From a virus: a stretch of 64,000 nt of DNA. Of the stretch, positions 6,170 to 31,794 are shown piece by piece. The notes under the pieces are model-generated. The model did not search any database. It was not told the DNA's origin and saw nothing but the letters and a program-made list of their open reading frames with translations. Every line of letters starts with the position of its first letter. Positions within the stretch are counted from its first letter, which is position 1. The position numbers and the translations under genes are program-made. The stretch spans positions 32,001 to 96,000 of IMG/VR virus record IMGVR_UViG_3300031972_002122; one strand, given 5' to 3'.

Positions 6170-6188
6170 TGTTTGGATTTTTTGAAAC

Positions 6189-6197
6189 ATATTTATT
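6189..6197 (+). promoter_or_regulatory. Putative late promoter motif ATATTTATT
   Basis: 21 nt upstream of sheath ATG; GAGGA RBS follows. Confidence 0.6.
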
Positions 6198-6218
6198 ACA
6201 AAAAGAGGATAGTTTAGA

Positions 6219-8054: not shown

Positions 8055-8069
8055 AATTTGATTTAACTG

Positions 8070-8078
8070 ATATTTATT
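8070..8078 (+). promoter_or_regulatory. Putative late promoter motif ATATTTATT
   Basis: 18 nt upstream of tube-1 ATG. Confidence 0.6.
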
Positions 8079-8096
8079 AGAAAAGAGGAATATTAA

Positions 8097-8576
8097 ATGC
8101 CAAGAATAGTAGTACCTGATGCGCACCATCCGAGTTTGCAGTTTCGTTACCAAGTAACTACATCGAAGTTACCGAGTGCGCAACTTTATGCAAGATCGGC
8201 TCAACAGCCATCATTCGACAACGCTCCAGTGAGTGTAGAGCATATTAATTACTACTTCAAAGTGAAGGGTAAGACTCGGTGGAATGACATCACACTATCT
8301 TGCTATCAGTTTGAAGGAATAACAGCAAAAGAACTTTGGGATTATCTTAACGGTAGTCACCAAGAAGTTGAGGGTGCAGTTGACATGTACGCTCCATCAT
8401 ACAAGCATGATATGCAGCTAATGATATTAGCCCCAGACGGATCAACTCCAGTAGGGACATGGAAACTAGTAGGCGCATTCATTGCTAACGCATCGTGGGG
8501 TGACATGGATTGGGGAACTGATGACGTTATCCAATGTGATATTACCATATCATATGACTACGCAACTTTCAGCTAA
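8097..8576 (+). CDS. Tail tube protein (gp19-like), copy 1
   Basis: KGKTRWNDITL, W.L.GAF, WG..DW, ITISYDYA motifs; directly after sheath. Confidence 0.9.
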   Translation: MPRIVVPDAHHPSLQFRYQVTTSKLPSAQLYARSAQQPSFDNAPVSVEHINYYFKVKGKTRWNDITLSCYQFEGITAKELWDYLNGSHQEVEGAVDMYAPSYKHDMQLMILAPDGSTPVGTWKLVGAFIANASWGDMDWGTDDVIQCDITISYDYATFS

Positions 8577-8608
8577 TAAGTTAATTAATTAAACGAGGAA
8601 TTTTAAAA

Positions 8609-8836
8609 ATGAATGAAACTACTAAATCACTAATTAGACACATATTAACCGCAGTTGGTACTGTGTTGGTATTGGTTGGTGTAAACGGGGCAGTCCCAAT
8701 CGTAGACTTTTTACAAGAAAATCTTGACAGTATGTGGGAAGCAATCGTAGCGATTGTAGGTTTTGTAACTACATTGATTGGATTTTTTACAGATAAAGGT
8801 AAGCGGTTCGAGGTTAGAGCTGCCGAGAAATCGTAA
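8609..8836 (+). CDS. Small two-TM membrane protein (holin-like)
   Basis: Two hydrophobic segments (IRHILTAVGTVLVLVG; AIVAIVGFVTTLIGFF), basic tail, GAGGA RBS. Confidence 0.6.
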   Translation: MNETTKSLIRHILTAVGTVLVLVGVNGAVPIVDFLQENLDSMWEAIVAIVGFVTTLIGFFTDKGKRFEVRAAEKS

Positions 8837-8859
8837 ACTGAAAAGTTCGGAATGGATAT

Positions 8860-8891
8860 AAAGGCATTTGCTACGGCAGATGCCTTTTTTT
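8860..8891 (+). terminator. Rho-independent terminator
   Basis: AAAGGCATTTGC-TACG-GCAGATGCCTTT hairpin followed by T run. Confidence 0.85.
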
Positions 8892-8927
8892 GTTGTATGG
8901 CTATTTATTATAAATGAAGAGTATCAA

Positions 8928-9404
8928 ATGCCTAGATTAGCACAACCTGATGTATTTCACCCTAGATTGCAATTCCGTTATACGTGGTTTACGTCCCACT
9001 TACCGGGCATCTCGATATACGCAAGGTCAGCTCAACAACCATCGTTTGATAATAATCCAGTTACGGTGGATTTTATGAGTAGTTATTACAAACTAAAAGG
9101 TAAGACTCGGTGGAATGACATCACACTGACATGTTACCAGTTTGAAGGGATTACTGGTCGGGAGTTATATCAGTATTTGAATAATGATCATTTTAATGTT
9201 AGCGATGCCGTAGAAAACTTTGCAGATGAATATAAACATAAGATGCAATTGTTTTTACTTAACCCATTGGGAGTTCCGACTGGGATATGGACGTTGGAGG
9301 GAGCATTTATTGCGAATGCGTCATGGGGTAGTATGGATTATGGGTCGGACGAAGTTATGGAATGTGAAATAACTATTTCATACGATTATGCGGAGTTTTT
9401 ATAA
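8928..9404 (+). CDS. Tail tube protein (gp19-like), copy 2
   Basis: Clear paralog of 8097-8576 (YARSAQQPSFDN, KGKTRWNDITL.CYQFEGIT); start set at ATG 8928 after terminator and CTATTTATT motif. Confidence 0.88.
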   Translation: MPRLAQPDVFHPRLQFRYTWFTSHLPGISIYARSAQQPSFDNNPVTVDFMSSYYKLKGKTRWNDITLTCYQFEGITGRELYQYLNNDHFNVSDAVENFADEYKHKMQLFLLNPLGVPTGIWTLEGAFIANASWGSMDYGSDEVMECEITISYDYAEFL

Positions 9405-14300: not shown

Positions 14301-15460
14301 TAATCCCAGCATCGATTGGACTTGTGACAATGATACCCGGTGTCGTTGGTGCCAAACTAATATCAATGATAGATGGGGGTAGGTTAGAAAGTGGTCTCGC
14401 TGGAATGGCTAAGGGTTTGAGTGTGATGGGTAAAGGTAAAGTATTAGTTGGAAGTTTAGCACTGATAGCTGCCAGTGTCGGGTTTATAGCAATGATTCCT
14501 GCATCGATTGGTATGGCATTGTTGGGTGCTACAGCTCCATTAGCTGCCGCTGGGTTGGCTGTATTGGGACCGGCAATTGCAACATTCGGTGGGATTATGA
14601 TGTCTGGGGCTGGTGCCGTTGGATTGATAGCATTTGTTGCTGCTGCTATAGGATTGGGATATGCATTAAAATTAGCAGCTCCAGCGATCGCAGCATTTAT
14701 TCCAATAGTGGAGACATTTGGTACCATCATTCGCGCTGCATTTGATGGTCTAGGTACGGTTATAACTTCGATTGCAACTGGATTTGCAACTATGATGAAA
14801 GCTGTTACTATGGAACGTGTGGTAGCTATGACTGCGATGGGGCCAGCACTTATGAGTGCTGCCGCTGGTATTTTAGCAATTTCTGCGGCTATGGCTGGTG
14901 GATCGATAGCATCATTTTTCGGTGGTCGAGTATTAGATGATTTGGAATCATTGGCATCTATCGCAAATCCATTAGGTATAGCATCTAAAGCAATCGCATT
15001 ATTAGGTGAATCAATTAGACATTTAACTGAGGCATTAGCTGCAGCAGACTTCACTAAGCTGAGTGAATTCGAAAAACTTAAGGGAATAGCTGAGAATGTT
15101 GGTATTGGATTCAAAATGCGTGGTGGGGATGCTGGTGTAATACAACCCCCATCGTCAGAGTCTACAGCACAAAACGTGGCGGTGGCAGAACCACCAGCAC
15201 CAGAAACTACCGCACAGAATGTAGTTATTAAAGAGGTACCAGTATCGACAACTCAAGAATCGAGCACTACACTCGATCCAATACAACAAGCTGTTTCTGG
15301 GTTTGGGAGTGGTGGTAGTACTAAAAAGATTGAGTTGTTACTTGGTCAATTGATAAATGAGATGCGTGGGTTGAATCAACGACCGATTGTTGTTGATTTT
15401 GGTGATGGGACGTTGAAGACCTTAAACCAGAAGATGAAAGGAATGAATAATAATAGGTAA
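11384..15460 (+). CDS. Tape measure protein
   Basis: 1358 aa, helical, Ala/Gly/Leu-rich periodic C-terminal half; sits between chaperone and baseplate genes; TTG start with AGGAG RBS. Confidence 0.9.
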   Translation: MALDPKTVAELNRIIKILASTGSEVGNKSRELVTLMYAIQQGFVDVGDKMDQVLSDVASGKFEKKNFTAYVKTLGVTKKQLVAIRNIHAEVGKLTDDQIIKARDYGRILDDINSSDRERYDLTTLTLSAFDNMNSQLKQQRKLVDSIGISFGDNAGLINKQIKKHKELSNVFQNEFLPTKEIEDHLSTINDVVDNITGNKFTLEGIGTVSPDEAINVLGTISDEQLRLLQVEADVRKKKLKEFAAYASGKTIDIKTGEIFGKDKFKALSGAALASTDKMLEKMTANYESIVEQAIEHGSLTEELLDGLTDIEKEAVKHLYVITDANQIYEKQLELTKENAKHLLKFRPALSAAEDASRGFANSLKGALDVIPKGLQKILGIENAVADVEASGKKAIGVFKSKLIETGSASEAVGASIKAWGRGISSSVGFLGGFVILLGGLFKLTSSIEGKYKDLAHHLHISTGQAKELYAANLKLVASQKNQFLTLKDISDVQAAYVHATGQVFDLTEKGGQKLAMSLGEMGKAFGYGAETAVEIYEVFSQLGADKKLANKLQAELGFMSEMAGLSPNIIAHDLIESADIVATYFGGMPEAAGRAAIEVRRMGMNLKTAGEISRKMTHGMEGFMTDMFELAAMGGPDLSAAFELGVRGDIEGMTKAIMESIGSLSEFNDMDFLQKEKIAATLGMTSAELGKSLMLREKMAGMSKTEQDIVNSNLASFGNIADMDQQAIRDRIAQVESTQRLTVAWDKIKAVFIKALLPAVESFADMLTGAAPAINAIIWGLGIVAKLVKGISWFVGGMLTPFKTISGIVDGTTEGLEGVLKTLGSIFIAWKLLIKPAFKFVRLLRNGKGIIKSMGAFTKPLGSIFSKIIPKGFMKSLGGIKSKVGELLSMSGGKGGGVSGTVTETLAGTVTEKVKGGKASGMVPEVDLPKATRGADKVKSGMGDNLRNFFSGLGDGLKSMSGTKVLSGALNLIPASIGLVTMIPGVVGAKLISMIDGGRLESGLAGMAKGLSVMGKGKVLVGSLALIAASVGFIAMIPASIGMALLGATAPLAAAGLAVLGPAIATFGGIMMSGAGAVGLIAFVAAAIGLGYALKLAAPAIAAFIPIVETFGTIIRAAFDGLGTVITSIATGFATMMKAVTMERVVAMTAMGPALMSAAAGILAISAAMAGGSIASFFGGRVLDDLESLASIANPLGIASKAIALLGESIRHLTEALAAADFTKLSEFEKLKGIAENVGIGFKMRGGDAGVIQPPSSESTAQNVAVAEPPAPETTAQNVVIKEVPVSTTQESSTTLDPIQQAVSGFGSGGSTKKIELLLGQLINEMRGLNQRPIVVDFGDGTLKTLNQKMKGMNNNR

Positions 15461-15465
15461 TTTTT

Positions 15466-15996
15466 ATGCCAAGACCTAGAGGTGGATTAGGATCGGAATT
15501 GTTTTACTTTAGACCAGCGTTGCCCGGGAAGGGGCTTCAGCCTAAGATATCATTTGATGCTCATATCACTGGTTTGACGGACTCTAGTAGCCCGGGGTGG
15601 GGTGAAAGTTATGACATGGGTCGACCCGATCCAGTCATGACATATGGTAATATGTCTAGAAATATTAATATATCGTTCATAGTAACTTCAGTTTCTAAAG
15701 AAGAGCAGACAATAAATTACTTGAAACTTAGAAACTTAGCTAATTTAACTTACCCAATATATGAGCAGGGTAAGGGGTATAACGCTCCACATGTGTATTA
15801 CGGTGTTGGGTTTCACTTGAAAGGGTATGGTATTCTCACGTCAATTGATTTTACGTGGGACGGTCAACAGCCGTGGACTGGAACTCCGCCTAGACCATTA
15901 TTTACGGACGTTACATTAAATATTCGTGTACTTGGTGATGATGCTGGGCAGCGACCAGAGTATCTTAATGGTGATTATAATTATTTTGGGGATTAA
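15466..15996 (+). CDS. Baseplate tail-tube initiator-like protein
   Basis: F.AHIT.LTD..S..W.....GRPDPV.TY....R.I..SF, L..LTYP.Y motifs; follows tape measure. Confidence 0.65.
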   Translation: MPRPRGGLGSELFYFRPALPGKGLQPKISFDAHITGLTDSSSPGWGESYDMGRPDPVMTYGNMSRNINISFIVTSVSKEEQTINYLKLRNLANLTYPIYEQGKGYNAPHVYYGVGFHLKGYGILTSIDFTWDGQQPWTGTPPRPLFTDVTLNIRVLGDDAGQRPEYLNGDYNYFGD

Positions 15997-15998
15997 TA

Positions 15999-16307
15999 AT
16001 GCAGAGATACGAGAAATATGCAAACATAATAAAAACCGAGACGCAGCGAAAGCGTAGATACAGTACTATGTACTACCCATCTATTGAACGAAAGACTTCG
16101 GATATATACATAATTACTAGAAATAACGATCGGCTAGATTTACTTGCTAATAATTATTATGGTGATCCTAGATTGTGGGTTATTTTGGCGAAAGCTAACA
16201 AATTACATGCTGGGACGCTTAGGATACCAGCGGGTAGTCGACTGCGAATACCATACCCGTTAGATCGTGGTGATGTATTCAAACAATTTACAGATAAACA
16301 ATTTTAA
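15999..16307 (+). CDS. LysM-domain baseplate wedge protein (gp53-like)
   Basis: DRLDLLANNYYGDPRLWVILAKAN...G..LRIP. Confidence 0.85.
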   Translation: MQRYEKYANIIKTETQRKRRYSTMYYPSIERKTSDIYIITRNNDRLDLLANNYYGDPRLWVILAKANKLHAGTLRIPAGSRLRIPYPLDRGDVFKQFTDKQF

Positions 16308-16312
16308 AAGTT

Positions 16313-18352
16313 ATGGCAGAATCTTTATACAGACGTAGTCCTAAAGATATTTTCACTAAGACTGTTCAAGGTAGGTCTAAATTACTGAACGAGGCTCAAA
16401 CTATTGGTGGTAAATCAATTCAGATGGTTAACCCAGCGTGGATACAGATAACTGGTGTTTGTAACATGTGTAGTGGTAAGGTTGAAGCGATGACACTGCC
16501 TAAAGAAAAGGGAAATTGGGACGATCTGTATAAGATCAATGGACTCAAACCATCTCCAATACTTGAGAATGTAACGATAACGTATGGTGGTGATTGGGGA
16601 CTAGCACAAAAACTTACGGCAAATATAAAATGTTTTGATTTGGACACGTTCGATGCTGTTCGAAAAGCATTCTTAATGCCCGGTAACGAGATTTCCGCTG
16701 AATTTGGATACTCAACGTCTAATCAGTGGAATTCGCCAGAGCAAGAACATAATACTGTTGTTGGATTTAGAGTAGCGGTATTTTCATTTTCTGCTGGCGA
16801 CGATGGGACTTGGATTGGGTCATTCACTGCAGTATCTTCGGCGGAGGCTATAAAATCTATAGACTTGATGCAGGGGTTGTCCGACGATGGGTTAAAGTAT
16901 GACGTTGCTGGGAATATGGAGTCTAAGGAGCGGGTTGAAGTTAAGTCAATTGCGGAATTAGTAGCGTCAGATGCTCAACGTAATGGTTCTGAAAGTTTGA
17001 ACCGTGTAACTGATAGCAAAAGCGGATACGTTATCAGTGATTTTGCCAAATATGACCCTACCGACAGGGATACCATGCAAGCTTCTATGGTTTTGTATAC
17101 ATCGAAGCATTTATATCAGTGGGGTAAAATTAGTGAAGCAGGGGCTTCTATTAGAAGGTATTGGAAACGGTACTGGAATACGTGGGATGAGGCTGAGCAT
17201 ACAATTCATCAAGTGTATGTTACCTTGGGTTATATAGTCGATAGAGTTATAAACGACAAAATAAAAAAATCAGTCGAGTCGGCGATTCTTGGTGATGATC
17301 TTGAAAAATTTAAAAAGTTAAAAATCAGATTTCATAAAGAATTCTCACAGTCTAGGCTTCCACCGCTTGTAGAATCTGGTGATCCACTTTCTGTATTAAT
17401 ATTGGGTGACGGTGTTGGGTATTTTAAGGGAGAGAATGGTCGGGAGATGAGTTTCAATCACCTTAGAGGGCAGGATGAGGGAAAGCAGGAGCATGTTAGA
17501 GCACTCACTGGGTTGGATTTAAGGCTAGATAAAATACTTATCCATCGGGATGTGATGATGGGTGCACTTGGGGATGCTACTGATGAGAAGGTAAATGAGT
17601 CCGAGACAGTTGATCCGAAGGATACACAAGATACCGTCATCAATTTGAATGATTTCTTTAAAAAAATATTTAGCATAATAAAGGAATGTACGGGTGGTGC
17701 CCTAGCACTTAGACTTGTATACGATCCAGATGACGAATCTCGGGAGACGTTATTAGTAGTCGATCAGAACTATGGTGGAGATTCTGAAATTCCTTGCTTT
17801 ATTTTTAATCCAATCGACGGTGATGGGTCGACAATTTCGTGTAACATATCATCGAATGGTGGGTCGGGAGAATATCGAACTTCGATGTATTTAGCTAACT
17901 CTAAGAAGGGTGACGTTGCAGCTCGTATGCGTAATTGTGAACCAGAACTAGATGATGGTCGAAAAGTTAAGCGTGGTAAGGCTGAAGATCGTTATGGGGA
18001 AATTGTGTTATCACCGGGTCACATGCTATCGTACAGTTTCAGCGAAAAACAAATAGATGCACTGAAGGGTGTGATGGTAGACTTAACTAGATATTCGGGA
18101 AAGGCTCATGAACCGTTCGAGAATGTACACTGGCCGGGTATGACAATTGAATTAAAAATACATGGAGCGTGGGGTATTATACCGGGATGCGCTATAATGA
18201 CAACACAGGCACCCGTGGAATGGAGAGTCGGTGGGAAGAATATATATTTCATGGTTACTGAAGTTACTCATAATTTTAATCAATCGGTATGGACTACGGA
18301 TATCCGAGGGATCATGTCATTTTACGATAACCTAACAGAAGTAAAATTATAA
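16313..18352 (+). CDS. Baseplate hub-like structural protein
   Basis: 679 aa; C-terminal IELKIHG..GI.PG...FMVTEVTH.F....WTT.I.G typical of hub proteins; synteny. Confidence 0.6.
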   Translation: MAESLYRRSPKDIFTKTVQGRSKLLNEAQTIGGKSIQMVNPAWIQITGVCNMCSGKVEAMTLPKEKGNWDDLYKINGLKPSPILENVTITYGGDWGLAQKLTANIKCFDLDTFDAVRKAFLMPGNEISAEFGYSTSNQWNSPEQEHNTVVGFRVAVFSFSAGDDGTWIGSFTAVSSAEAIKSIDLMQGLSDDGLKYDVAGNMESKERVEVKSIAELVASDAQRNGSESLNRVTDSKSGYVISDFAKYDPTDRDTMQASMVLYTSKHLYQWGKISEAGASIRRYWKRYWNTWDEAEHTIHQVYVTLGYIVDRVINDKIKKSVESAILGDDLEKFKKLKIRFHKEFSQSRLPPLVESGDPLSVLILGDGVGYFKGENGREMSFNHLRGQDEGKQEHVRALTGLDLRLDKILIHRDVMMGALGDATDEKVNESETVDPKDTQDTVINLNDFFKKIFSIIKECTGGALALRLVYDPDDESRETLLVVDQNYGGDSEIPCFIFNPIDGDGSTISCNISSNGGSGEYRTSMYLANSKKGDVAARMRNCEPELDDGRKVKRGKAEDRYGEIVLSPGHMLSYSFSEKQIDALKGVMVDLTRYSGKAHEPFENVHWPGMTIELKIHGAWGIIPGCAIMTTQAPVEWRVGGKNIYFMVTEVTHNFNQSVWTTDIRGIMSFYDNLTEVKL

Positions 18353-18918
18353 TGCCACTTAAAAGACCATATTACGCACTACATCAAATTGTATCTGGTA
18401 AATATACTGCTGGAAACGAATTCGTATTATCCGATGGTAGCGATTATATAGGGTCGTACCATATTTTACCAAACACTCAGGTATTTACAATGCCTATTCC
18501 TAAACTTGATAGTGAGGAATTGTTTGCGAAACGAACTGACATCAGTGAGGTGGTGAAGCGATACAATCTGATAACTCAGCAGGACGCTAGTCGTTACGTT
18601 TCCCCTATATCACAGCAACCGATGCCGTCGACTGATGATTATGAATTTGGTGAGATACAACGATTTTTTGTACAGAAACGAAACAATCCTAGAATAACGA
18701 TTATGGAAATCGATGAGCCGCAGTTCAATAAAATCAATCAGACCAATGATCCGGGAATCAACGGCGTAATATGGAACAGCATACTAATACCGTGGGTTAT
18801 ATCTAAAATTCCACCAGAGGATGCTAGCATTATAAATCAACGATCACTAATTACCGCCGAGCGATCGTTTAGATGGATCAGTCGTTATGTTTCAAATTTC
18901 TTGGAATTCTACAAATAA
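18352..18918 (+). CDS. Hypothetical (baseplate-associated) protein
   Basis: Coupled TAATG to hub gene; YTAGNEF....G..Y.G.YH and P...DY..G...RFF..K.N motifs. Confidence 0.6.
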   Translation: MPLKRPYYALHQIVSGKYTAGNEFVLSDGSDYIGSYHILPNTQVFTMPIPKLDSEELFAKRTDISEVVKRYNLITQQDASRYVSPISQQPMPSTDDYEFGEIQRFFVQKRNNPRITIMEIDEPQFNKINQTNDPGINGVIWNSILIPWVISKIPPEDASIINQRSLITAERSFRWISRYVSNFLEFYK

Positions 18919-18935
18919 TTTTGCATTTTTGCTAG

Positions 18936-20267
18936 ATGGTGAATCTAATAACGTCTAAAAATGCGAATGACGTATTGTCAAACTTATCACGTGAAACTTT
19001 CTGGGTACCTATCCAGTCCGACTGGACGCTACATCATACACAGAACAGAATCAGTTCGATGTATATCTACGACATTCAGACTGAAAATGAGTATATCGTA
19101 GGGTTCCACTCGGTTGATATGGATAATATTGACTTTGATTGGTTTATGGATCGTCTCCCGAATGGTAGACGTTTCTGTTATAGATTGAGATATCTAAAGA
19201 CGGATACACCATTCGAGGACGCCGACATGTTAGTATGGTATAATACTGGAAAGCCAATAGAGCTTGATCAGGACGCGACCATGATATTCAGAAATTATCA
19301 CAGACGTTATAAGGGCATTAAAAATATAAATGATTGTATACCAATCATGAAAATTCTAGAATATTGTCGGAGTGTTAGAAATAAATTCGTATCGTATGGA
19401 TTAGATTACATTCATGTAAACTCTAAGGGCTATTTATTTTATAATGACGTGTACCTAAAATCGTTACACACAATAGAACTTGCTGGTATTTGTGTAGATA
19501 GTGAATTATTCAACGCTAGGTATAACAAAGATACTGATCCAATTGTATACACGGAATACAACCCATACACACTCACTGGTAGACCTAGTTCTAGATTTGG
19601 TGGGATTAATTTCAACTCATTGAATAAGAAGGATGGGTCACGGGCGATGATCGTTAGTAGGTTCGAAGGTGGGAGACTGTTTGAGATTGATTATGATAGC
19701 TATCACGTTAGACTGATCGGGAATATTATAGGTTTTGAACTACCAGACGGAAACTTACACGAACATTTTGCTAGGATATATTTCGGGAGGGATGATATAA
19801 CACCCGAGTTGTATGAAAAAAGTAAAACGATAACATTCCAGCAACTATATGGTAAAGTTAAGCCAGAATACAGTCATATAGAATTTTTTAAACGAATACA
19901 AGAGTTCATAGATAGTCAGTGGAATGATTACGAAACTGTGGGCTATTTTAGTAGTCCATTGTCTGGTCGTAAATTCAGGGAGGGGTGGTTTGATAGTATG
20001 AATAAATCTAAGATGTTCAATTATATCATACAATGTTTCGAGTCTGAGGTTAATGCTGTAGTGCTTAGTGATATTTTACAATATTTATATCAGAGAACCA
20101 GTAAAGTTATTATGTATACGTATGATGCGATAGTAATAGATTACGATCCGTTGGATGGTATTGATGTTATTAGGGGTATTATGAAACGGATGACCAAATT
20201 TGGATATCCAGTACACATACAAGCTGGACTTAATTATAATGATATGATTGATGTTAAAATCGACTAA
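18936..20267 (+). CDS. Atypical family-A DNA polymerase-like protein (polymerase domain only)
   Basis: TLTGRPSS..GINF, motif A DYDSYHVRL, motif B K.ITFQQLYG, FNYIIQ..E, motif C YTYDA. Confidence 0.8.
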   Translation: MVNLITSKNANDVLSNLSRETFWVPIQSDWTLHHTQNRISSMYIYDIQTENEYIVGFHSVDMDNIDFDWFMDRLPNGRRFCYRLRYLKTDTPFEDADMLVWYNTGKPIELDQDATMIFRNYHRRYKGIKNINDCIPIMKILEYCRSVRNKFVSYGLDYIHVNSKGYLFYNDVYLKSLHTIELAGICVDSELFNARYNKDTDPIVYTEYNPYTLTGRPSSRFGGINFNSLNKKDGSRAMIVSRFEGGRLFEIDYDSYHVRLIGNIIGFELPDGNLHEHFARIYFGRDDITPELYEKSKTITFQQLYGKVKPEYSHIEFFKRIQEFIDSQWNDYETVGYFSSPLSGRKFREGWFDSMNKSKMFNYIIQCFESEVNAVVLSDILQYLYQRTSKVIMYTYDAIVIDYDPLDGIDVIRGIMKRMTKFGYPVHIQAGLNYNDMIDVKID

Positions 20268-20280
20268 CTCGGGGCTATGA

Positions 20281-20664
20281 ATGGATTCATTGTTATTGTG
20301 CACGTTTGCACACAATTCGGATATAAAGCTAATAACTGACTACATATACCAGAACTACGAACTCGAGCGTGGGTCTATATTTGTTTTCGAGAACGAAGAC
20401 GATCCCGATGAAATGTTTTGTACTTATAATGTAGTGTCCGTTGACCATTTCATCGAAAATACTATAATGATTCATCGTAAAAAGGAATCTAACACGTTAT
20501 ACACTATAAACGCGTTGAATGAGATTATAAAGTTAGCTAATGGTGGCTACCTAGATAAAAATTTCATCGTAGACTGGACACTATACATCAACTCCATGTT
20601 ACTCTCAACAGACCAGTCAGTACGGGTAGTTCCACTCGTTCTAAAACACATCCTCAGAAAATAA
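20281..20664 (+). CDS. Hypothetical protein between PolA-like gene and SSB
   Basis: 127-aa ORF; LLCTF / HRKKESNTLYTINALN segments. Confidence 0.75.
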   Translation: MDSLLLCTFAHNSDIKLITDYIYQNYELERGSIFVFENEDDPDEMFCTYNVVSVDHFIENTIMIHRKKESNTLYTINALNEIIKLANGGYLDKNFIVDWTLYINSMLLSTDQSVRVVPLVLKHILRK

Positions 20665-20687
20665 TTGTATTTTTTTTACCTTTTTTC

Positions 20688-20720
20688 TTGTTAATTCGGA
20701 ATTATAATTGGATATTGCAG
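20688..20720 (+). promoter_or_regulatory. Putative Bacteroidota-type -33/-7 promoter
   Basis: TTG-N20-GATATTGCAG upstream of SSB; same layout at 61056-61087. Confidence 0.4.
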
Positions 20721-20768
20721 CCAATAACGATATTTTATTTTATTTATTAATTAAAACTTGGAATAATT

Positions 20769-21578
20769 ATGGACATTAGTCTTTTGCAATCAAAGTTAAA
20801 AGAGTTGAAATCTCAGAGCGGTGAGCGGAGAATTCTTTGGAAACCGAAGCCGGGCAAGCAGGTAGTTAGAATCGTACCTTATAAGCACAATCCTAACTGG
20901 CCCTTTGTCGAACTGTATTTTCACTACAACATCGCTAGTAAGACGATGATTTCTCCATCTTCATTTGGGAAACGTGATCCTATTAAGGAATTTTCTGAAA
21001 AATTACAATCGACTGGTGATCGTGACGATTGGAAGCATGGTAAACGAATCGAACCTAAGCGACGTACGTATGTGCCAATATTAGTACGTGGTGAGGAGAG
21101 TGAAGGTGTTAAATTTTGGGGATTTGGAACCCAAATTTATGAACAATTGCTCATGAAAATTGACGACCCAGATTGGGGAGATATTACACACCCAATGGAA
21201 GGTAGAGATATTACTGTGATGTTTGAAAAGGCGTCCGGTCCGAATTCCTACCCAAAAACTACGATCGACGTGAAGCCTAATCAAACGGTTGTTACTGAAA
21301 ATCGTGAAGTTTTAGAGTCTATGAAAGATATGCCAGAACTACCTACACTGTGGGATGAACCTTCATATGAAGAGTTAAAGGCTATCTTAGATGAGTATGT
21401 TGAGACTGGTGAGACTGTTCAGGGAAATACTGGTGCGAGTACGAATGCTGAAACTGACACTGCAACTACTGAAGCGGTAGCTACTGGAACTAAACCAGTG
21501 TCAACTGAAAATTCGACGTCTACCAAATCTGACGTTATGGAAGCGTTTGGTTCTTATTTTGACAAAAAAGGATCGTAA
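20769..21578 (+). CDS. Single-stranded DNA-binding protein (gp32-like)
   Basis: WKP..G...VRIVP, PFVELYFHY, GVKFWGFG..IY, GDIT.P.EGRD, low-complexity tail. Confidence 0.85.
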   Translation: MDISLLQSKLKELKSQSGERRILWKPKPGKQVVRIVPYKHNPNWPFVELYFHYNIASKTMISPSSFGKRDPIKEFSEKLQSTGDRDDWKHGKRIEPKRRTYVPILVRGEESEGVKFWGFGTQIYEQLLMKIDDPDWGDITHPMEGRDITVMFEKASGPNSYPKTTIDVKPNQTVVTENREVLESMKDMPELPTLWDEPSYEELKAILDEYVETGETVQGNTGASTNAETDTATTEAVATGTKPVSTENSTSTKSDVMEAFGSYFDKKGS

Positions 21579-21580
21579 TC

Positions 21581-22765
21581 ATGGCTAGAAAAAAGAAAGC
21601 AACTGGGGTATCGATGGTAGACGTGACCAAGAATGTATCTGCTAGTTTACAGAAGATGTTCAAAAACACGGGCATTAATATTCAGAGTGGTATCACTGCG
21701 GATAGTTCTGCAAATGTAACTACGTGGATACCTACAGGATGTAGACCTTTAGACCTAGCTATTAGTAATTTACCAGACCGCGGGGGTTTTCCTTGCGGTC
21801 GGATTACTATCCTATATGGACCGGAGCAATCAGGTAAGTCATTACTAGCTATGCATGCGATCGCCAATACACAAAAGCTCGGTGGTAAAGCAGTTTACAT
21901 AGACGCCGAGTTTTCAATCCATGAGGAGTTCGCGAAGTCTATAGGAGTAGACCTAACTCAGTTAGATTATCTAGCTGAGAATCAGGCGGAAACGATTATG
22001 GTACTGGTTGAAGGGTATTGTTCAGAATTTAGAAAGAACTTCCCAGATACGCCACTGACGATTGTTGTAGATTCCATCGCTAGTATGGTCACTGAAGACA
22101 ATCTAAAGAATGGTCACAATTCAGTTGGTTATGATACGTCGTTATCTAAACTGTTATCAACTAGCTTGAAAGTGTTGGGTAGAGTTGTATCTGAGCATAA
22201 TGTTGCACTGATATTTACCAATCAGGCTAGGATGAAAATGAATATACAGAATCCTAGAGAGAATCCGTACAAGCCATTTGGCGGTCAGGCAGCACCACAC
22301 TACGCATCGCTGATAATCTTCATGGAGAAATCTTCGAAGATTAAGGGTAAGGTGAAGGGTGAGGAACGGTTGATTGGGAGATCGGCTAGAGTTCGGACTA
22401 TTAAGAATAGGCTAGCACCTCCAGAGGTATCGTTAGTACTCGATATATACTTTGACCGAGGTATCGACGACTTTGAGAGTTGGTACAACATGGTTAAAGC
22501 GTTCGGTAACGTTACGTTTAACGGTGCTTGGATATCTTACACGTCGAAAGACGGTCGTGAATTTAAGGAAAATGGTTGGAATAAGTTTTGTAAAAAAGTT
22601 TTAGAACCAAATCCAGACATAGCTGAAGAAATTTGGTTACATACAGCTAATGAGTTTATCGTCAAGTATAAAAATAGGGACGAGGATACTGAAGGCATGG
22701 AAATTGTTAGGGAGTCTGAATTAGACACACCAGCGAATAAACTGAATAGTGATGGAGGCAAATAG
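21581..22765 (+). CDS. recA: RecA/UvsX-like recombinase
   Basis: PTG..LDLA, Walker A GPEQSGKS, YIDAE, IVVDSIA, IFTNQ.R, GG.A, KNRLAPP. Confidence 0.93.
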   Translation: MARKKKATGVSMVDVTKNVSASLQKMFKNTGINIQSGITADSSANVTTWIPTGCRPLDLAISNLPDRGGFPCGRITILYGPEQSGKSLLAMHAIANTQKLGGKAVYIDAEFSIHEEFAKSIGVDLTQLDYLAENQAETIMVLVEGYCSEFRKNFPDTPLTIVVDSIASMVTEDNLKNGHNSVGYDTSLSKLLSTSLKVLGRVVSEHNVALIFTNQARMKMNIQNPRENPYKPFGGQAAPHYASLIIFMEKSSKIKGKVKGEERLIGRSARVRTIKNRLAPPEVSLVLDIYFDRGIDDFESWYNMVKAFGNVTFNGAWISYTSKDGREFKENGWNKFCKKVLEPNPDIAEEIWLHTANEFIVKYKNRDEDTEGMEIVRESELDTPANKLNSDGGK

Positions 22766-23810
22766 ACTCAAGAATCTTTTTTCTAAATTTAAAGAGGAAC
22801 AAGACGCTATTAAGGACAGAAATAGTCGTGTGTTGATCGTGGATGGTTTGAATATGTTTATTCGATCATTCGCGGCATCACCCGCTATGAATGAGCGTGG
22901 TGAGCACATCGGTGGGACAATTGGGTTTATGAAGTCATTCTTCGCTGTTATTAGACGCTTCCGACCAACACGGTGTGTGTTAGTGTTTGATGGGTTAGAT
23001 GGCGGTGCTAGACGTAGAAAGAAGTTTCCAGAATATAAATCTGGACGTAAAAATCGTGACAGATTGAATAGATTTTTTGAACTTGATGGTCATCTAACCG
23101 AAGGTGACTCATTCCAAATTCAGTTCGGTAATCTAGAACAATTACTGAACACGTTACCAATAACCATGATGTCAATCGATTATATAGAAGCGGATGACGT
23201 TATCGGGTATATATCGAAAGAATATTATAGTTATACAGATGTTGGGGATATTATAATTGTGTCCGCCGACAAGGATTTCTTGCAGTTGGTCGATGAGCGT
23301 GTTACCGTTTACAGCCCAATAAAAAAGAAATTATACGATATTGATCTCGTTAAAAAGGAGTTCAACATATCACCAAACAATTATCTCACTTTTAGGACTT
23401 TAACAGGCGATGTGTCTGATAGCATACCCGGTGTCAAGGGTGTTGGGTTAAAAACCCTACTGAAGTATTTTCCAGAGATTATAGAAGGGGACGTCGATCC
23501 ACGGGGAATAGTTCAGTTAGCTAATCAGAAAATCGAGGAGGGTAGTAAGCGCAAGACCTATCAAAATGTGGTCAATGCGGCAGATCAAATTGATGTGAAC
23601 TGGGACTTGATGCAATTATCAAATGTGGATATCCCAGACGCTAAACGGACTATAATACGTAGTATTATGGATGCGGAGGTTTATAAGTTAGATAAGCTTA
23701 GACTTAAGAAGCTTATTTATAAACATGGTCTCAACGACCACATACCACGATTTGATGAATGGATATACTCATCATTAACACAGTTAGACTTATATGCAGA
23801 ATCTGAGTAG
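22752..23810 (+). CDS. 5'-3' exonuclease / flap endonuclease (T4 RNase H / PolI N-terminal type)
   Basis: LIVDG.N, VFDG, YK.GR, EADDVI, SADKDFLQL, GD.SD.IPGV.GVG.KT. Confidence 0.93.
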   Translation: MEANRLKNLFSKFKEEQDAIKDRNSRVLIVDGLNMFIRSFAASPAMNERGEHIGGTIGFMKSFFAVIRRFRPTRCVLVFDGLDGGARRRKKFPEYKSGRKNRDRLNRFFELDGHLTEGDSFQIQFGNLEQLLNTLPITMMSIDYIEADDVIGYISKEYYSYTDVGDIIIVSADKDFLQLVDERVTVYSPIKKKLYDIDLVKKEFNISPNNYLTFRTLTGDVSDSIPGVKGVGLKTLLKYFPEIIEGDVDPRGIVQLANQKIEEGSKRKTYQNVVNAADQIDVNWDLMQLSNVDIPDAKRTIIRSIMDAEVYKLDKLRLKKLIYKHGLNDHIPRFDEWIYSSLTQLDLYAESE

Positions 23811-25167
23811 ATACGGACATGGTTTTCAAGTAAAGTTATTGGCTTGTTTATTGACTGATGTTCATTTTAGTAGTAGGATTTTTGATATTCTGAGATCGGA
23901 ATATTTCGATTCTGAAGCACTTGCATGGTTATGTGACGTGGTACTTAAGTATTATCAAACATATCACTGTATAGCGACTATGGACGTCCTTAAAGTAGAA
24001 ATTGATAGCATTTCAGATGAAAACTTAAAGGCTGAGGTTGTGAAAGTGCTTCGGGAGTCTTACGGTAGCGTGGAATCTTCCGACTTACAATTTGTGAAGG
24101 AGTCTACAATCGAATTTTGTAGAAATCAGGAATTGCAGTTTGCCATTATGGATTCCGTTGATATGATCAAAACTGGAAATTTTGAAGGTATTAAAAAACG
24201 CGTTGATGAGGCATTAAAAAAGGGTGAAGACACTAACGTTGGGTTGGATTATTTGACGGAGATTGATCTTCGGTATGAAGATATGGCGCGGTCACCTGTT
24301 ACTACTGGTTTTCCTTACGTAGATTTTTTAACTCAAGGCGGATTGTCTGGTGGTGAGCTGGGTATTATTGTCGGTCCGGGTGGGTCGGGGAAGTCTTGGG
24401 TACTGGCTACGATGTGTGCCAATGCAATGATCGCAGGGCATAAAACATTATACATAACGTTGGAACTTGGTGAGGCATACGTAGGCGTCAGGATCGATTG
24501 TATATTAACGAGTATTCCGATGAACGAACTTAAAGAGAATCGGGAGATTATTAAGAATAGACTGAAGCGAGTGACTGGTTCACTTAAAATTCAATGGTAC
24601 CCCACTAGAAATTTATCTACAGTTGGGTTGAGATCATTATTAGATCGGATGTCTTTGCTTGGAGAAATGCCCGAGGTTATCTATCTAGATTATGCGGATT
24701 TGATGCGGCTTAGTAGCTCAAAGTCTAAGCGGAAGGATGAAGAGTTGCAGGAATTGTATGAAGAGATACGTGGTATTGGCGGTGAGTACGACATACCAAT
24801 ATGGTCAGCATCTCAAGCTAATAGATCGAGTCATGCTGATGAGGTTGAGTTTGTGGACGCTGGAATGATATCTGAAAGTATGGGAAAGCACTTCACCGCA
24901 GATTTTATGATGTCTATTTTAAGAAAAGAAAAGGATAAAATGTCGGACACTGCCAAATTTCATATTATAAAAAATAGATTTGGGGAGGATGGTGTGACAT
25001 TACTGTCTAAGATGGATACTCAACATGGCGTACTTGAGATTTATAGACCTAATAGTCAGAAGAGCAGAGACTTAGAGGATAAGATAATTGAGAATGAGAC
25101 TAAGCCAGATATTAAGCTGAAGGGGCATTATGAAAAATTCTTCGGCGATCAGGAGGCTAAAGCATGA
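23794..25167 (+). CDS. dnaB: Replicative DNA helicase (DnaB/gp41-like)
   Basis: Walker A GPGGSGKS, YITLEL, YLDYADL, WSASQANR, KNRFG. Confidence 0.92.
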   Translation: MQNLSRYGHGFQVKLLACLLTDVHFSSRIFDILRSEYFDSEALAWLCDVVLKYYQTYHCIATMDVLKVEIDSISDENLKAEVVKVLRESYGSVESSDLQFVKESTIEFCRNQELQFAIMDSVDMIKTGNFEGIKKRVDEALKKGEDTNVGLDYLTEIDLRYEDMARSPVTTGFPYVDFLTQGGLSGGELGIIVGPGGSGKSWVLATMCANAMIAGHKTLYITLELGEAYVGVRIDCILTSIPMNELKENREIIKNRLKRVTGSLKIQWYPTRNLSTVGLRSLLDRMSLLGEMPEVIYLDYADLMRLSSSKSKRKDEELQELYEEIRGIGGEYDIPIWSASQANRSSHADEVEFVDAGMISESMGKHFTADFMMSILRKEKDKMSDTAKFHIIKNRFGEDGVTLLSKMDTQHGVLEIYRPNSQKSRDLEDKIIENETKPDIKLKGHYEKFFGDQEAKA

Positions 25168-25251
25168 TATAACTTAAACCTATTGTTTGTAACGATGAAA
25201 AAATATATGATTTTTTTTACTCAAAACGGAGGTGAAAGGTGTTACTCGTGC

Positions 25252-25383
25252 ATATTTATTAACGAAACGGAGCAATTTCGCTCTGGAAATTTTAACCATA
25301 GAATATTTGAGGGGGGCTATTAATTGGTGTATTTGTATAGATACGCCCCTAAATACTATTATCTAATTTTAAAGGAGAATTTA
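25252..25383 (+). promoter_or_regulatory. Promoter motif plus structured 5' leader of RNR gene
   Basis: ATATTTATT at 25252; hairpins at 25268-25285 and 25304-25355; AAGGAG RBS before ATG 25384. Confidence 0.4.
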
Positions 25384-27237
25384 ATGAACGTTGGTCAAGA
25401 AATACTATCCGACATCACGGTACACATGAAATATGCTAGGTACGTACCAGAACTGAATAGACGAGAAAACTGGTCTGAACTTATAGATCGAAATGTTGCT
25501 ATGCATAAAGAACGATACCCAAAATTGGTGGACGAGATCGATTCCGCTTACAAATTTGTGAGGGATAAGAAAATTTTACCATCAATGCGTAGTCTTCAAT
25601 TTGCTGGAAAACCCATTGAGATAAGTCCTAATCGTGTTTACAATTGTGCTTATCTACCAATAGACGATTGGCGAGCATTTTCTGAGGTTATGTTTCTATT
25701 ACTCGGTGGGACTGGTGTTGGGTATAGTGTTCAGCAACATCATGTTGACGAATTGCCAGATATTCTTAGACCTAGGGAGGACAGAACTCGGCGATACCTA
25801 ATAGGTGATTCTATTGAAGGATGGGCAGATGCTATTAAGGTTTTGATGAAATCGTATTTTTATGGTGGGTCGAGGTTGAAGTTTGACTTTAGTGATATCC
25901 GACCGAAGGGTGCTAGATTGGTTACTAGTGGTGGTAAAGCACCCGGACCACAACCTCTACGAGAATGCTTAGTAAAAGTCGAGGGGATTTTAAGTTCAAA
26001 ACAAACTGGAGACCGATTAACACCCATCGAGGTTCATGACGTGGTTTGTCATATAGCTGATGCAGTTCTAGCTGGTGGTATTCGGAGAGCTGCATTGATA
26101 TCATTATTTAGTGCGACTGATGAAGAAATGCTTGCAGCTAAGTCTGGGAACTGGTGGGAATTGAATCCACAGCGTGGTAGAGCAAACAACTCCGCAGTAC
26201 TTCTTCGGTATAAAGTTGATAAGGATTTCTTTTTAGAATTGTGGGAGAAGATACAAGCATCGGGTGCTGGTGAGCCGGGCATTTATTTTTCGAATGATAA
26301 AGACTGGGGAACGAATCCATGCTGTGAGATCGCATTACGACCATTTCAATTTTGTAATTTGACTGAAGTTAACGTTAGCGACGTTGAAAGTCAGGAAGAG
26401 TTGAATGCTAGAGTTAGTGCCGCGTCACTGATCGGGACATTACAAGCTGGCTATACAGATTTCCACTATCTCCGACCAGTATGGCGACGTGTTACTGAGA
26501 AGGACGCGTTGGTAGGTGTTAGTATGACTGGAATTGGGTCAAATAAGTTGGTGGAATTAGACTTGAAAGAAGCTGCTAAGATAGTTAAAGACGAAAATAA
26601 ACGAGTCGCATCTCTTATTGGAATAAATACTGCAGCTCGATGTACAACTGTAAAGCCTGCGGGTACTACATCGTTGGTGTTGGGATGTTCGTCGGGTATC
26701 CATGCTTGGCACGATGAATATTATATAAGAAGAATTCGTGTTGGTAAAAATGAAGCAATCTATACATACTTATTAGAGAACCACCCAGAACTTGTTGAGG
26801 ATGAATACTTTAGACCTCATGATACTGCGGTAATATCAGTACCTCAGAAATCTCCAATCGGGTCGATACTTAGGAGTGAATCTCCAATCCAATTGTTGGA
26901 GAGGGTTAAGCGTGTATACGGCGAGTGGGTTAAACCGGGTCATCGACGTGGGAATAACACACACAATATATCCGCGACTGTTAGTATCCGTGAACATGAA
27001 TGGGCTGCGGTAGGTGAGTGGATGTGGGAGAATAGACTGTCTTACAACGGACTTTCAGTACTGCCATACAACGGTGGGACTTACACACAAGCACCATTTG
27101 AGACGTGTGATCAAGAAACGTATGAAACCATGATGCAAACTTTACAAGAAGTGGATTTAAACAATATCATCGAATACGATGACAATACAGACCTTAAGGG
27201 TGAAGTCGCTTGTGCTGGTGGAGCCTGTGAAATTTAA
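25384..27237 (+). CDS. nrdJ: Class II (adenosylcobalamin-dependent) ribonucleotide reductase
   Basis: PSMRSL, YNCA, GTGVG, TNPCCEI, TVKPAGT, C-terminal ACAGGACEI; no small subunit adjacent. Confidence 0.9.
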   Translation: MNVGQEILSDITVHMKYARYVPELNRRENWSELIDRNVAMHKERYPKLVDEIDSAYKFVRDKKILPSMRSLQFAGKPIEISPNRVYNCAYLPIDDWRAFSEVMFLLLGGTGVGYSVQQHHVDELPDILRPREDRTRRYLIGDSIEGWADAIKVLMKSYFYGGSRLKFDFSDIRPKGARLVTSGGKAPGPQPLRECLVKVEGILSSKQTGDRLTPIEVHDVVCHIADAVLAGGIRRAALISLFSATDEEMLAAKSGNWWELNPQRGRANNSAVLLRYKVDKDFFLELWEKIQASGAGEPGIYFSNDKDWGTNPCCEIALRPFQFCNLTEVNVSDVESQEELNARVSAASLIGTLQAGYTDFHYLRPVWRRVTEKDALVGVSMTGIGSNKLVELDLKEAAKIVKDENKRVASLIGINTAARCTTVKPAGTTSLVLGCSSGIHAWHDEYYIRRIRVGKNEAIYTYLLENHPELVEDEYFRPHDTAVISVPQKSPIGSILRSESPIQLLERVKRVYGEWVKPGHRRGNNTHNISATVSIREHEWAAVGEWMWENRLSYNGLSVLPYNGGTYTQAPFETCDQETYETMMQTLQEVDLNNIIEYDDNTDLKGEVACAGGACEI

Positions 27238-27648: not shown

Positions 27649-29256
27649 ATGGGTAAGTTTAAAAAGTTATCAGATGAAGATATTGAATATATCAAAGCCA
27701 TCTATTTTACTAATATATCACATCAGGAAAAGTTAGATATACTAACTGCTAAACACGGTGTTGTTGGTCGGACAGTTCGTCAATGGTGGATTAAATTAGA
27801 ACTGACTGAGGCTGGTCGTATTAGAAAACTGCCAAAGGTTTTACGTGATGCTCGGGAGAAAGAGATTGATGTTGAAACTGAAATCATTATGGTTACTGCA
27901 GCTCAAAATAAGACTATCGCTAACAGACCTATGTATGAAAATATGCAGGCTTATGGAAAGTTTATGGAGAGTGAATTTGGGAAGAAATCTCAAATCGTAA
28001 TAATACCATCTAGGTATAGAAATCCAACATCTCCAGTGGAAGCTGAAAAGAAGAAGGTAGATATGTGGTGGGACTCTTCAGTTGTACCTGATATATACTA
28101 TAATAAGCTTTTATTTGGTGACGTGATGATATCAGCCACTAGTAGGATCAGACCTACTGCTAACATGCCACTTAGTGGTTATGAAAGTTTAGCTTCAGAT
28201 AATCATTTAATAATTGGACACCCACGTTTACATTTAAAGGTTATGCCTAGATTTCGGAATGACGATCTACGTATAATGTGTACTAGTGGCTACGTCACTC
28301 GAAAAAATTATTCGGATTCTAAGGCTGGTGATAAAGGATTTGTACACCATTCATATGGTTTTGTTGTAATTGAGAAAAAACCTGATGGTACATGTTACCC
28401 ACCACGTATTGTTAAAGTTAAAGACGACGGATCATTTATAGACTACAAATACAGTGTTAGTGATGGTGATGTGGCTGTTATTGACGAGGCGGCTGCTTAT
28501 GTTTGGGGTGATATTCACCACCGAGAACTCAATAAGCATAAATACAAGGCTTCCATGAAATTAACTAAGGAGTTAAATCCTGAAAAGACTGTATTTCATG
28601 ATCTTTTTGATGGGTCGACGGTGAATCCTCACGAAAAGGATGATTTGTTCATTCGGAAGCTCAAAATTACTCAAGGGCTACATATAGTTGATGAAGAGGT
28701 GGAGGAAAGTCTTAAATTTCTGAAGAAATTCTCTAAGAAATACAAGGGAGACATATACGTGGTTCAAAGTAACCACGACGACTTCCTAGATAGGTATATT
28801 AATAAGCAAAACTGGAAAAATGATCTACATAACTCAGGGGCTTATCTTAAATATGCAGCTATACAACAGTCAACTGATCTTAGGGAATATGGAAACATTT
28901 ACGGAGCCATTATTTCTGAAAGATTCAAGGGTAAAATAGTATATGTGCGTAATAACGAGTCACTTAAAGTGCAATCGTACCAGTGTGGGTATCACGGTGA
29001 TCACGGTGTAAATGGTGCGCGGGGAAGTATAACTTCATTTAAGCGACTAAACACTAAAATGATTCATGGTCATGGTCACACACCAATTATGATGGATGGG
29101 GTTACTATGGTCGGTGTTTCGTGTAACCTTTGGCAGTATTACAATTCTAAGGGGCTGTCTAGTTGGGCGTATGCTGATTCTATAATTCATAAGAACGGTA
29201 AAAACCAATTAATAATATTTGATGATAAAACTTTTGAGTTTACAAATTTGAGGTAA
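27649..29256 (+). CDS. Calcineurin-like metallophosphoesterase/nuclease with N-terminal HTH-like region (T5 A1-like)
   Basis: GDIH, HDLFDG, SNHD, HGDHG.NG.RG, GHGHTP metal-binding motifs. Confidence 0.75.
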   Translation: MGKFKKLSDEDIEYIKAIYFTNISHQEKLDILTAKHGVVGRTVRQWWIKLELTEAGRIRKLPKVLRDAREKEIDVETEIIMVTAAQNKTIANRPMYENMQAYGKFMESEFGKKSQIVIIPSRYRNPTSPVEAEKKKVDMWWDSSVVPDIYYNKLLFGDVMISATSRIRPTANMPLSGYESLASDNHLIIGHPRLHLKVMPRFRNDDLRIMCTSGYVTRKNYSDSKAGDKGFVHHSYGFVVIEKKPDGTCYPPRIVKVKDDGSFIDYKYSVSDGDVAVIDEAAAYVWGDIHHRELNKHKYKASMKLTKELNPEKTVFHDLFDGSTVNPHEKDDLFIRKLKITQGLHIVDEEVEESLKFLKKFSKKYKGDIYVVQSNHDDFLDRYINKQNWKNDLHNSGAYLKYAAIQQSTDLREYGNIYGAIISERFKGKIVYVRNNESLKVQSYQCGYHGDHGVNGARGSITSFKRLNTKMIHGHGHTPIMMDGVTMVGVSCNLWQYYNSKGLSSWAYADSIIHKNGKNQLIIFDDKTFEFTNLR

Positions 29257-31793: not shown

Positions 31794-31794
31794 T

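Follow-up and report, generated by a model that had tools for sequence, protein, structure and literature searches.

A divPolA1-family DNA polymerase with histidine at the predicted steric-gate position and its gene neighbourhood in a virus genome record

The divPolA1 family of phage DNA polymerases, of which gp1 of Flavobacterium phage immuto is the prototype, was reported from 14 immuto-like myophages with genomes of 155-190 kb, where a regular polymerase, which may belong to family A, B, or C, accompanies it and conserved replication genes lie downstream (Yutin et al., 2024; PMC11348598). These authors describe conserved palm residues, a truncated thumb and an apparent inactivation of the exonuclease domain, and they regard divPolA1 as a probably active polymerase taking part in replication. 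The main text of the paper does not discuss the steric gate, a histidine, motif A, or ribonucleotide choice, and it names a primase solely in another context (PMC11348598). A reclassification of family-A polymerases in 2023 distinguished 19 clusters and holds that the exonuclease seems to be retained in every phage PolA (PMC10201439). Further shortened enzymes of the PolA fold are CCPol of the staphylococcal cassette chromosome (SCC) elements, described as a DNA primase once it is bound to a small oligonucleotide/oligosaccharide-binding (OB)-fold protein encoded next to it (PMC7581432, PMC10061031), and the minimal PolA-like enzymes of the TV-Pol and divPolA2 type, which were proposed to act as accessory enzymes, primases, or RNA polymerases (Iyer, Abhiman, Aravind 2008, PMC2579912). 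Here, we compare with these systems a 443-amino-acid open reading frame (ORF) at positions 18936-20267 of a 64,000-nucleotide stretch of virus DNA, in the following called the window, which comprises bases 32001-96000 of the 128,570-bp IMG/VR record IMGVR_UViG_3300031972_002122 (CheckV completeness 73%).

The ORF belongs to divPolA1, and judging from the alignments a histidine in place of the Klenow steric-gate glutamate is a hallmark of this large family, which is under constraint. We consider, with a probability of about one half, that the protein is a distributive, non-proofreading, template-dependent accessory DNA polymerase which would carry out short synthesis within a replication-recombination module. 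Compared with the published description, the family-wide histidine together with other changes of the nucleotide pocket, the size of the family, and a conserved 127-amino-acid companion are new, and an argument built on a missing primase is removed.

Membership in divPolA1 and the histidine of motif A

The best phage match of the ORF is immuto gp1, to which tblastn aligns 70% of the query at 35.8% identity (E 7e-56). The protein resembles divPolA1 in homology, length, truncated thumb, downstream genes, the presence of a regular polymerase in the genome, and an exonuclease-like domain without DxE, and although the record is shorter than the 14 published genomes, no difference that would exclude membership was found. 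None of the 19 clusters of the 2023 reclassification, as they are described in that paper, fits the protein (PMC10201439). A sequence-only reading that preceded this analysis had treated the polymerase as an atypical, specialised enzyme without placing it in the published divPolA1 family. All large ORFs around the gene lie on the + strand, and the gene and its motifs are placed as follows:

18936-20267, + strand: divPolA1-family polymerase, 443 amino acids, ATG start
19689-19712, + strand: motif A, DYDSYHVR (GAT TAT GAT AGC TAT CAC GTT AGA), with D252 as metal ligand
19821-19853, + strand: motif B or O-helix, SKTITFQQLYG, with K297, F301, and Y305 kept
20115-20129, + strand: motif C, YTYDA (TAT ACG TAT GAT GCG), with D397 kept

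The DNA letters agree exactly with the PolA-like ORF of 443 amino acids, the motifs DYDSYHVR and YTYDA, and the CAC codon at 19704 that had been reported from the sequence, and both catalytic aspartates, D252 and D397, are intact. His257, encoded by CAC at 19704-19706, stands at the steric-gate position of motif A. The protein scores 20.3 bits against Pfam DNA_pol_A (PF00476), under the gathering cut-off of 34.3, and immuto gp1 scores 42.7 bits, above it; PHROG 17 ("DNA polymerase") is matched at 9.5e-16. A search of the PDB with the single sequence gave no match at E<=1 and only the family profile succeeded: built from 36 homologues (alignment A1), it aligned with the Klenow fragment at E 5e-10. 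With Klenow residues numbered as we take them to be (D705, E710, R754, K758, F762, Y766, H881, D882, E883), the profile places fDYdaYHlrL on Klenow aDYSQIELRI, with His257 over E710 and D252 over D705, SKeitFrqLYG on AKAINFGLIYG, with K758, F762, and Y766 retained, FnYilQ on INAPMQ, with N845 and Q849 retained, and LYtYDs on QVHDE, with D882 retained, H881 replaced by Tyr and E883 by Ser or Ala. Tyr293, four residues ahead of the O-helix Lys, occupies the R754 position, and motif C of the protein itself carries Tyr for H881 and Ala398 for E883. Among the canonical features of PF00476, motifs A, B, and C with the two Asp, the Lys, the Phe/Tyr, and the Tyr are thus present, and the Glu gate, the O-helix Arg of RxxxK (here Tyr293), and the Glu after the motif-C Asp (here Ala398) are absent. 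A comparison by hhalign of the family profile with the regular PolA of immuto, gp71, reached a probability of 0.25 and is not usable; its motif A showed Glu opposite the His.

The conservation of these positions was tallied in two sets of relatives. The first comprises the best 120 of 219 homologues found at E<=1e-3 in a protein collection clustered at 90% (262-457 amino acids long, mostly 418-437). The second comes from an exhaustive search with a hidden Markov model (HMM) of 1.84 billion representatives at 50% identity, which returned 2902 proteins at E<=1e-3, 1263 at E<=1e-10, and 760 at E<=1e-30; chosen by HMM score alone, the best 150 matches have lengths near 420-470 amino acids throughout, and 148 of them are new relative to the first set and are 27-40% identical to the query. 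The divPolA1 family is therefore far larger than the published 14 phages. The gate position holds His in 119 of 120 relatives of the first set (Gln in one) and in 146 of 148 of the second (Gln and Phe in one each), and Glu in none of the 268 relatives of both sets. Both catalytic Asp are retained in 120/120 and 148/148 sequences (268/268), as are the Lys at the K758 position and the Arg at the R668 position (each 120/120 and 148/148), and Gln is kept at the Q849 position in 118/120 and 148/148; R668, N845, and Q849 are positions of primer-template contact and are fixed across the family. In the first set Phe stands at the F762 position in 118/120 and Tyr at the Y766 position in 119/120, the H881 position is Tyr in all 120, the E883 position is Ser in 97 and Ala in 23, and the R754 position is Tyr in 109, Ile in 8, Leu in 2, and Arg in one; Tyr is found there in 115/148 of the second set. 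A further 80 IMG/VR loci, used below for gene order, were excluded from the tally of the His because one of the two patterns by which they were searched contains it. Since the His is conserved to this extent in both sets, it is neither a chance substitution nor a sign of decay. The sequence-only reading would have been in difficulty with an unconserved His, with a His out of register with E710, or with pseudogene-like decay of the homologues, and none of the three was found.

Fold, thumb and nucleotide pocket

An AlphaFold2 model of the polymerase calculated on alignment A1 (predicted local distance difference test, pLDDT, 92.9; predicted template modelling score, pTM, 0.89) finds its best Foldseek matches in Pol I, the apicoplast polymerase, Pol theta, and Pol nu (E ~1e-17). 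VIA-align, whose best 50 structural matches are all DNA polymerases, superposes residues 1..438 of the model on residues 300..876 of the Bst Pol I large fragment (3hpo_A, 580 residues) with Z 26.9 and a root-mean-square deviation of 3.7 over 413 aligned residues. Because the alignment covers the whole large fragment, the N-terminal ~160 residues of the model correspond to its exonuclease-like domain. With the Pol I large fragments (Klenow, Bst, KlenTaq) the protein thus shares the whole-chain fold, the Asp of motifs A and C, the O-helix K/F/Y, the Arg of the TGR motif, and the N/Q of motif 6. It differs from them by an identity of only 12-17%, by a Pfam score below cut-off, by His for the Glu gate, by Tyr for R754 and for H881, by Ser/Ala at E883 in the family, and by the absence of ~80 thumb residues. 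Residues 231-310 of the Klenow chain have no counterpart in the query in the profile alignment; this skipped segment is assigned to the thumb tip, and on this alignment the thumb is truncated.

At the expected place of the exonuclease DxE motif the protein reads D29-W-T31, which bears out the earlier remark that such a motif is missing here, and 49 of the 120 relatives do have D-x-E at the end of the expected strand. D29, H33, D95, and E142 of the N-terminal domain (window positions 18936-19430) are conserved family-wide. In some members of the family, the seemingly dead exonuclease domain may have retained a metal site or acquired one. Fused relatives of the polymerase of 777-2215 amino acids were sought and none was found, which is weak evidence.

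The sequence-only reading had proposed altered sugar selectivity on the grounds that E710 is replaced. This does not follow from a His, because His is a gate that excludes ribonucleotides in family-D polymerases: His931 of PolD (Thermococcus 9 deg N) was shown experimentally to be a steric gate that excludes ribonucleoside triphosphates (rNTPs) and helps to bind deoxyribonucleoside triphosphates (dNTPs), and the H931A variant is described to lose rNTP discrimination (PMC7708050). H760 of Escherichia coli Pol III alpha is a modelled gate (PMC8485763). In both, a His faces the nucleotide sugar, and the folds are unrelated to that of PolA, which limits the comparison to a functional analogy. We therefore lean, by a modest degree, towards the His of divPolA1 being an alternative gate that would preserve the preference for dNTPs; its placement next to the sugar is taken from the sequence-profile alignment.

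The His does not stand by itself: the gate, the aromatic residue preceding it, and the R754 and H881/E883 positions were changed jointly and then fixed. In the Klenow fragment R754, H881, and E883 are needed for full activity. Their joint replacement suggests that the nucleotide pocket was remodelled and that its sugar-triphosphate site is likely to work differently from that of Pol I. One could suppose that the outcome is a catalytically weak or inactive scaffold that binds DNA or partners in the replisome, given the loss of the R754 and E883 positions, the missing thumb, and the Pfam score under threshold. In 268 sequences with an overall identity of ~30%, however, neither the two Asp nor the Lys of the O-helix nor the R668 position varies, and the Q849 position hardly does, as one expects where an active site is functional, and we regard the scaffold as the least probable of the readings considered here. 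Should the His turn out to function as a gate, divPolA1 would be the first family-A polymerase that uses the solution of families C and D, a case of convergence. If the pocket instead relaxes the recognition of sugar or triphosphate, the family would offer a compact, exonuclease-free PolA scaffold for enzymology and biotechnology, and the replication scheme of an abundant group of aquatic phages would be enlarged by another polymerase activity.

The replication-recombination module and the role of the polymerase

The polymerase gene is the first of a series whose order downstream of it is the same in immuto and in 80 IMG/VR loci, the best 80 of at least 578 related IMG/VR stretches, in all of which (80/80) divPolA1 is present. 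In the window the series reads, with one ORF upstream of the polymerase:

18352-18918, + strand: ORF of 188 amino acids with no Pfam or PHROG family; a tblastn match lies directly upstream of the polymerase in 50/80 loci
20281-20664, + strand: ORF of 127 amino acids, 43% identical to immuto gp2; homologue in 74/80 loci
20769-21578, + strand: gp32-like protein that binds single-stranded DNA (SSB), Pfam gp32 1.5e-14; 67/80 loci
21581-22765, + strand: RecA/UvsX-like recombinase, Pfam RecA 6.3e-39; 57/80 loci
22749-23810, + strand: stand-alone 5'-3' exonuclease (FEN), Pfam 5_3_exonuc_N 3.1e-32; 46/80 loci
23794-25167, + strand: DnaB-type replicative helicase, Pfam DnaB_C 4.3e-18; 36/80 loci

Since many of the loci are short, the counts drop with distance from the polymerase; ribonucleotide reductase (RNR) is found in 16/80. 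The Atlas neighbours of the 188-amino-acid ORF are viral hypothetical proteins only.

Further downstream lies the regular polymerase of this genome:

29256-31793, + strand: family-B DNA polymerase (PolB), Pfam DNA_pol_B 3.7e-26 and DNA_pol_B_exo1 4.3e-17

With its exonuclease domain PolB is the presumed replicase, and it was found in all five long related records (5/5). The earlier picture of a second, atypical family-A polymerase beside a regular PolB is supported, and PolB, the DnaB-type helicase, and the separate FEN are confirmed by their Pfam matches. The "probable clamp" of the sequence-only reading found no such support, as the Pfam families of the T4 clamp (PF02916, PF09116) are absent from the whole 73%-complete record; the ORFs after PolB at 31765-32523 and 33403-34515 match nothing in Pfam, PHROG, or the PDB sequences.

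Taken together, the protein is best read as a reduced relative of Pol I's large fragment, encoded by the first gene of a conserved module formed with the 127-amino-acid protein, the SSB, UvsX/RecA, FEN, and DnaB. It would be an active, template-dependent polymerase that lacks proofreading and has a poor grip on duplex DNA, and the combination of these two traits would confine it to short patches. Candidate tasks are the extension of invading 3' ends and D-loops made by the recombinase or, jointly with the FEN encoded nearby, the lengthening of primers and the filling of gaps in the manner of a split Pol I, with bulk synthesis falling to PolB. The invariant His would in this scheme be the steric gate proper to divPolA1, one that more likely preserves than abolishes the preference for dNTPs.

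Several points weigh against such an accessory short-patch enzyme. The R754 position is Tyr in 109/120 relatives, the E883 position Ser/Ala in 120/120, and the H881 position Tyr in 120/120, so that the enzyme may work slowly, act on a different substrate, or depend on a partner. Polymerase activity is a prediction for every member of the family, and the short-patch role is drawn solely from the gene neighbourhood and the missing thumb. Moreover, the regular polymerase is reported to be swapped among families A, B, and C while divPolA1 stays (PMC11348598), and the fixed divPolA1 could equally mean a more central role. At its extreme, this would make divPolA1 the real core of the replicase and the exchangeable regular polymerase its accessory, a view in line with the fixed place of divPolA1 as first gene of the module with SSB, recombinase, FEN, and helicase, and with the published description of the regular polymerase, whose family (A, B, or C) differs between members, whose neighbourhood varies, and whose function is called "less obvious" (PMC11348598). 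We hold this to be highly improbable: an enzyme without the proofreading motif in the protein studied here, with a truncated thumb and with no clamp found in the record is hard to reconcile with accurate copying of 130-160 kb, and the exonuclease domain of PolB is intact by Pfam. The ORF directly upstream of PolB (27649-29256, 535 amino acids) matches PHROG 1745 ("DNA transfer protein") at 6e-121 and shows a weak match to a metallophosphoesterase family, with no Pfam family assigned. A scan of positions 15000-26000 for promoters and terminators found 32 promoter-like sites, against a mean of 38.4 in shuffled sequence, and nothing informative.

The 127-amino-acid neighbour, the primase and other genes of the record

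A possible partnership of the polymerase with the adjacent 127-amino-acid ORF had been suggested from the sequence. The ORF does belong to the conserved genes of the module (74/80), and the six loci without a homologue all end within 1.4 kb past the polymerase match; at 33-52% identity in alignment A2, its family is also better conserved than the polymerase. Its association is, however, closer with the SSB gene, just upstream of which the homologue mostly lies, than with the polymerase gene, which it follows directly in 9/74 loci and from which it is separated by a large variable ORF in 65/74. The suggested partnership is weakened accordingly. The place of the gene before the SSB gene recalls the small genes for helicase loaders or mediators in T4. 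The family carries an invariant, basic and Asn-rich motif, HRKKxTNTLYTINALN. The protein matches no family in Pfam or PHROG, and an Atlas search with it gave nothing usable. Foldseek of its AlphaFold2 model (pLDDT 94.0) against the PDB returned nothing at E<=0.001. The best VIA-align hit (Z 6.2) covers residues 1-64 only and falls on ferredoxin-like domains, a weak and non-specific match, and the hits over the whole length, the origin-binding domain of the SV40 T-antigen (Z 5.4, 5.0) and a smacovirus Rep (Z 5.1), are too weak to use; the OB fold was not among the matches listed, all of them weak. Prediction of a complex of the polymerase and the 127-amino-acid protein gave a score of 0.00 and a mark of 0.32, which counts neither for nor against an interaction. 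Among the ORFs lying between divPolA1 and the 127-amino-acid homologue, 66 of the 75 that have at least 140 amino acids (148-825) form one blastp family; this family has no Pfam or PHROG match and is absent from the record of this phage.

A shortened stand-alone PolA followed by a small conserved ORF brings to mind the CCPol-MP or PolA-SSB primases, which, as they are described, share with divPolA1 the reduced thumb, an apparently partial or inactive exonuclease domain, the small ORF that follows, and a helicase gene nearby (PMC7581432, PMC10061031). They supply the precedent of a truncated PolA with shortened thumb that was turned into a primase by a small partner, and one may ask whether divPolA1 is in this manner a PolA-fold primase-polymerase that makes primers or uses ribonucleotides, in the firing of origins or in repriming during recombination. 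Besides the thumb, truncated in this protein as well, and the small conserved ORF, the absence of the Glu gate in 268/268 relatives fits this idea. The motif C of T7 RNA polymerase reads HDS, with a Ser after the Asp like the Ser of most of the family. The idea of primer synthesis in the sequence-only reading had leaned further on a primase missing from the window. This is true for the window; a DnaG-type primase is nevertheless encoded upstream of it, at G000:C1:4960-6009 (G000:C1 being the whole record), with a match to PHROG 47 at 2.3e-43 and, at G000:C1:4972-5847, to the DnaG-type primase that immuto itself carries, gp179 (tblastn, 37% identity, E 3.6e-50). A scan of the record with Pfam Toprim_2 found no primase and is a false negative, as the tblastn and PHROG 47 matches indicate. 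The primase is present in both complete relatives (2/2; 157 and 160 kb, with terminal repeats), and the three related records with no match are 48-63% complete. The argument from the missing primase is therefore rejected. An SbcC-like nuclease gene (5888-9004) follows the primase gene.

Since this record, immuto, and the two complete relatives all encode a DnaG-type primase, there is no priming gap to be filled, and further differences set divPolA1 apart from the precedent. CCPol takes the place of the canonical primase, and the gene right behind it encodes its partner, an OB-fold SSB; here DnaG coexists, the small ORF is in most relatives set apart from the polymerase by another gene, and its fold matches are weak, ferredoxin-like, and limited to the first half. 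CCPol is reported to retain E710 and F762 and to make DNA primers (PMC7581432), so that the His is not part of this precedent, and in PolD a His excludes rNTPs (PMC7708050). At the F762 and Y766 positions the family retains the Phe and Tyr typical of DNA polymerases, and the best 50 structural matches of the polymerase, all DNA polymerases, point in the same direction. We consider a primer-making or ribonucleotide-using enzyme unlikely. Quite unlikely, too, in our judgement, is the broader proposition that divPolA1 forms a sizeable and so far neglected branch of the PolA fold whose rebuilt pocket accepts ribonucleotides or starts chains independently of DnaG. If it were true, thousands of aquatic myophages would carry a PolA-fold enzyme that makes primers or RNA-DNA hybrids and that would act together with their recombinase and SSB.

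TV-Pol is a more distant comparison: it shares with divPolA1 the character of a minimal viral or mobile PolA-like enzyme, as does divPolA2, and it differs by an RxxxK finger motif and by linkage to a D5-like helicase, resolvase, or integrase (PMC2579912). Here the motif is YxxxK, the helicase is of the DnaB type, and the neighbours are gp32, RecA, FEN, and DnaB, with no such linkage. divPolA2 is described with another N-terminal domain and a variable gene context (PMC11348598).

Other genes of the record bear on whether the polymerase is specialised for modified DNA, either by copying hypermodified bases or by inserting modified nucleotides. Downstream of the window, a gene of the PurA/PurZ superfamily (G000:C1:109600-110748) matches PHROG 1211 ("2-aminooxy adenylosuccinate synthetase") at 1.6e-43. 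Its NCBIfam match to PurA (1.5e-28) stays far under the cut-off of that family, and the one to PurZ reaches 1.7e-5; the gene may or may not indicate 2-aminoadenine DNA. The gene at G000:C1:118905-119771 matches PHROG 842 ("beta-glucosyl-HMC-alpha-glucosyltransferase") at 3.2e-40, and that at G000:C1:115969-117147 an RtcB-type RNA ligase at 7.2e-119; the two matches hint that the DNA is modified with sugars and that tRNA is repaired. Specialisation for modified DNA could draw on the glycosyltransferases, the PHROG 842 match, and the PurA/PurZ-superfamily gene of this record as well as on the 7-deazaguanine pathway with DpdA in immuto. DpdA-type modification, however, occurs after replication, and the residues replaced in divPolA1 face the sugar and the triphosphate and not the base. 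The modification genes also vary among the phages of the family, with deazaguanine genes in immuto and none of these seen in the window, so that no single modification is seen to track with the family in this comparison, which included no co-occurrence test. From the literature, it can be added in favour that genes of nucleotide metabolism and modification are described near the regular polymerases (PMC11348598) and that PolA variants accepting hypermodified thymidine are cited in the reclassification paper (PMC10201439). On balance, we judge such a specialisation very unlikely, and the accessory short-patch polymerase remains our preferred reading.

Homing-endonuclease genes were seen in two of the genomes. 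One of the complete relatives carries a GIY-YIG homing-endonuclease gene directly after divPolA1 (L062:11263-11901), and the record studied here contains an HNH/homing-endonuclease gene at G000:C1:1672-2400 (PHROG 655, 9.2e-20).

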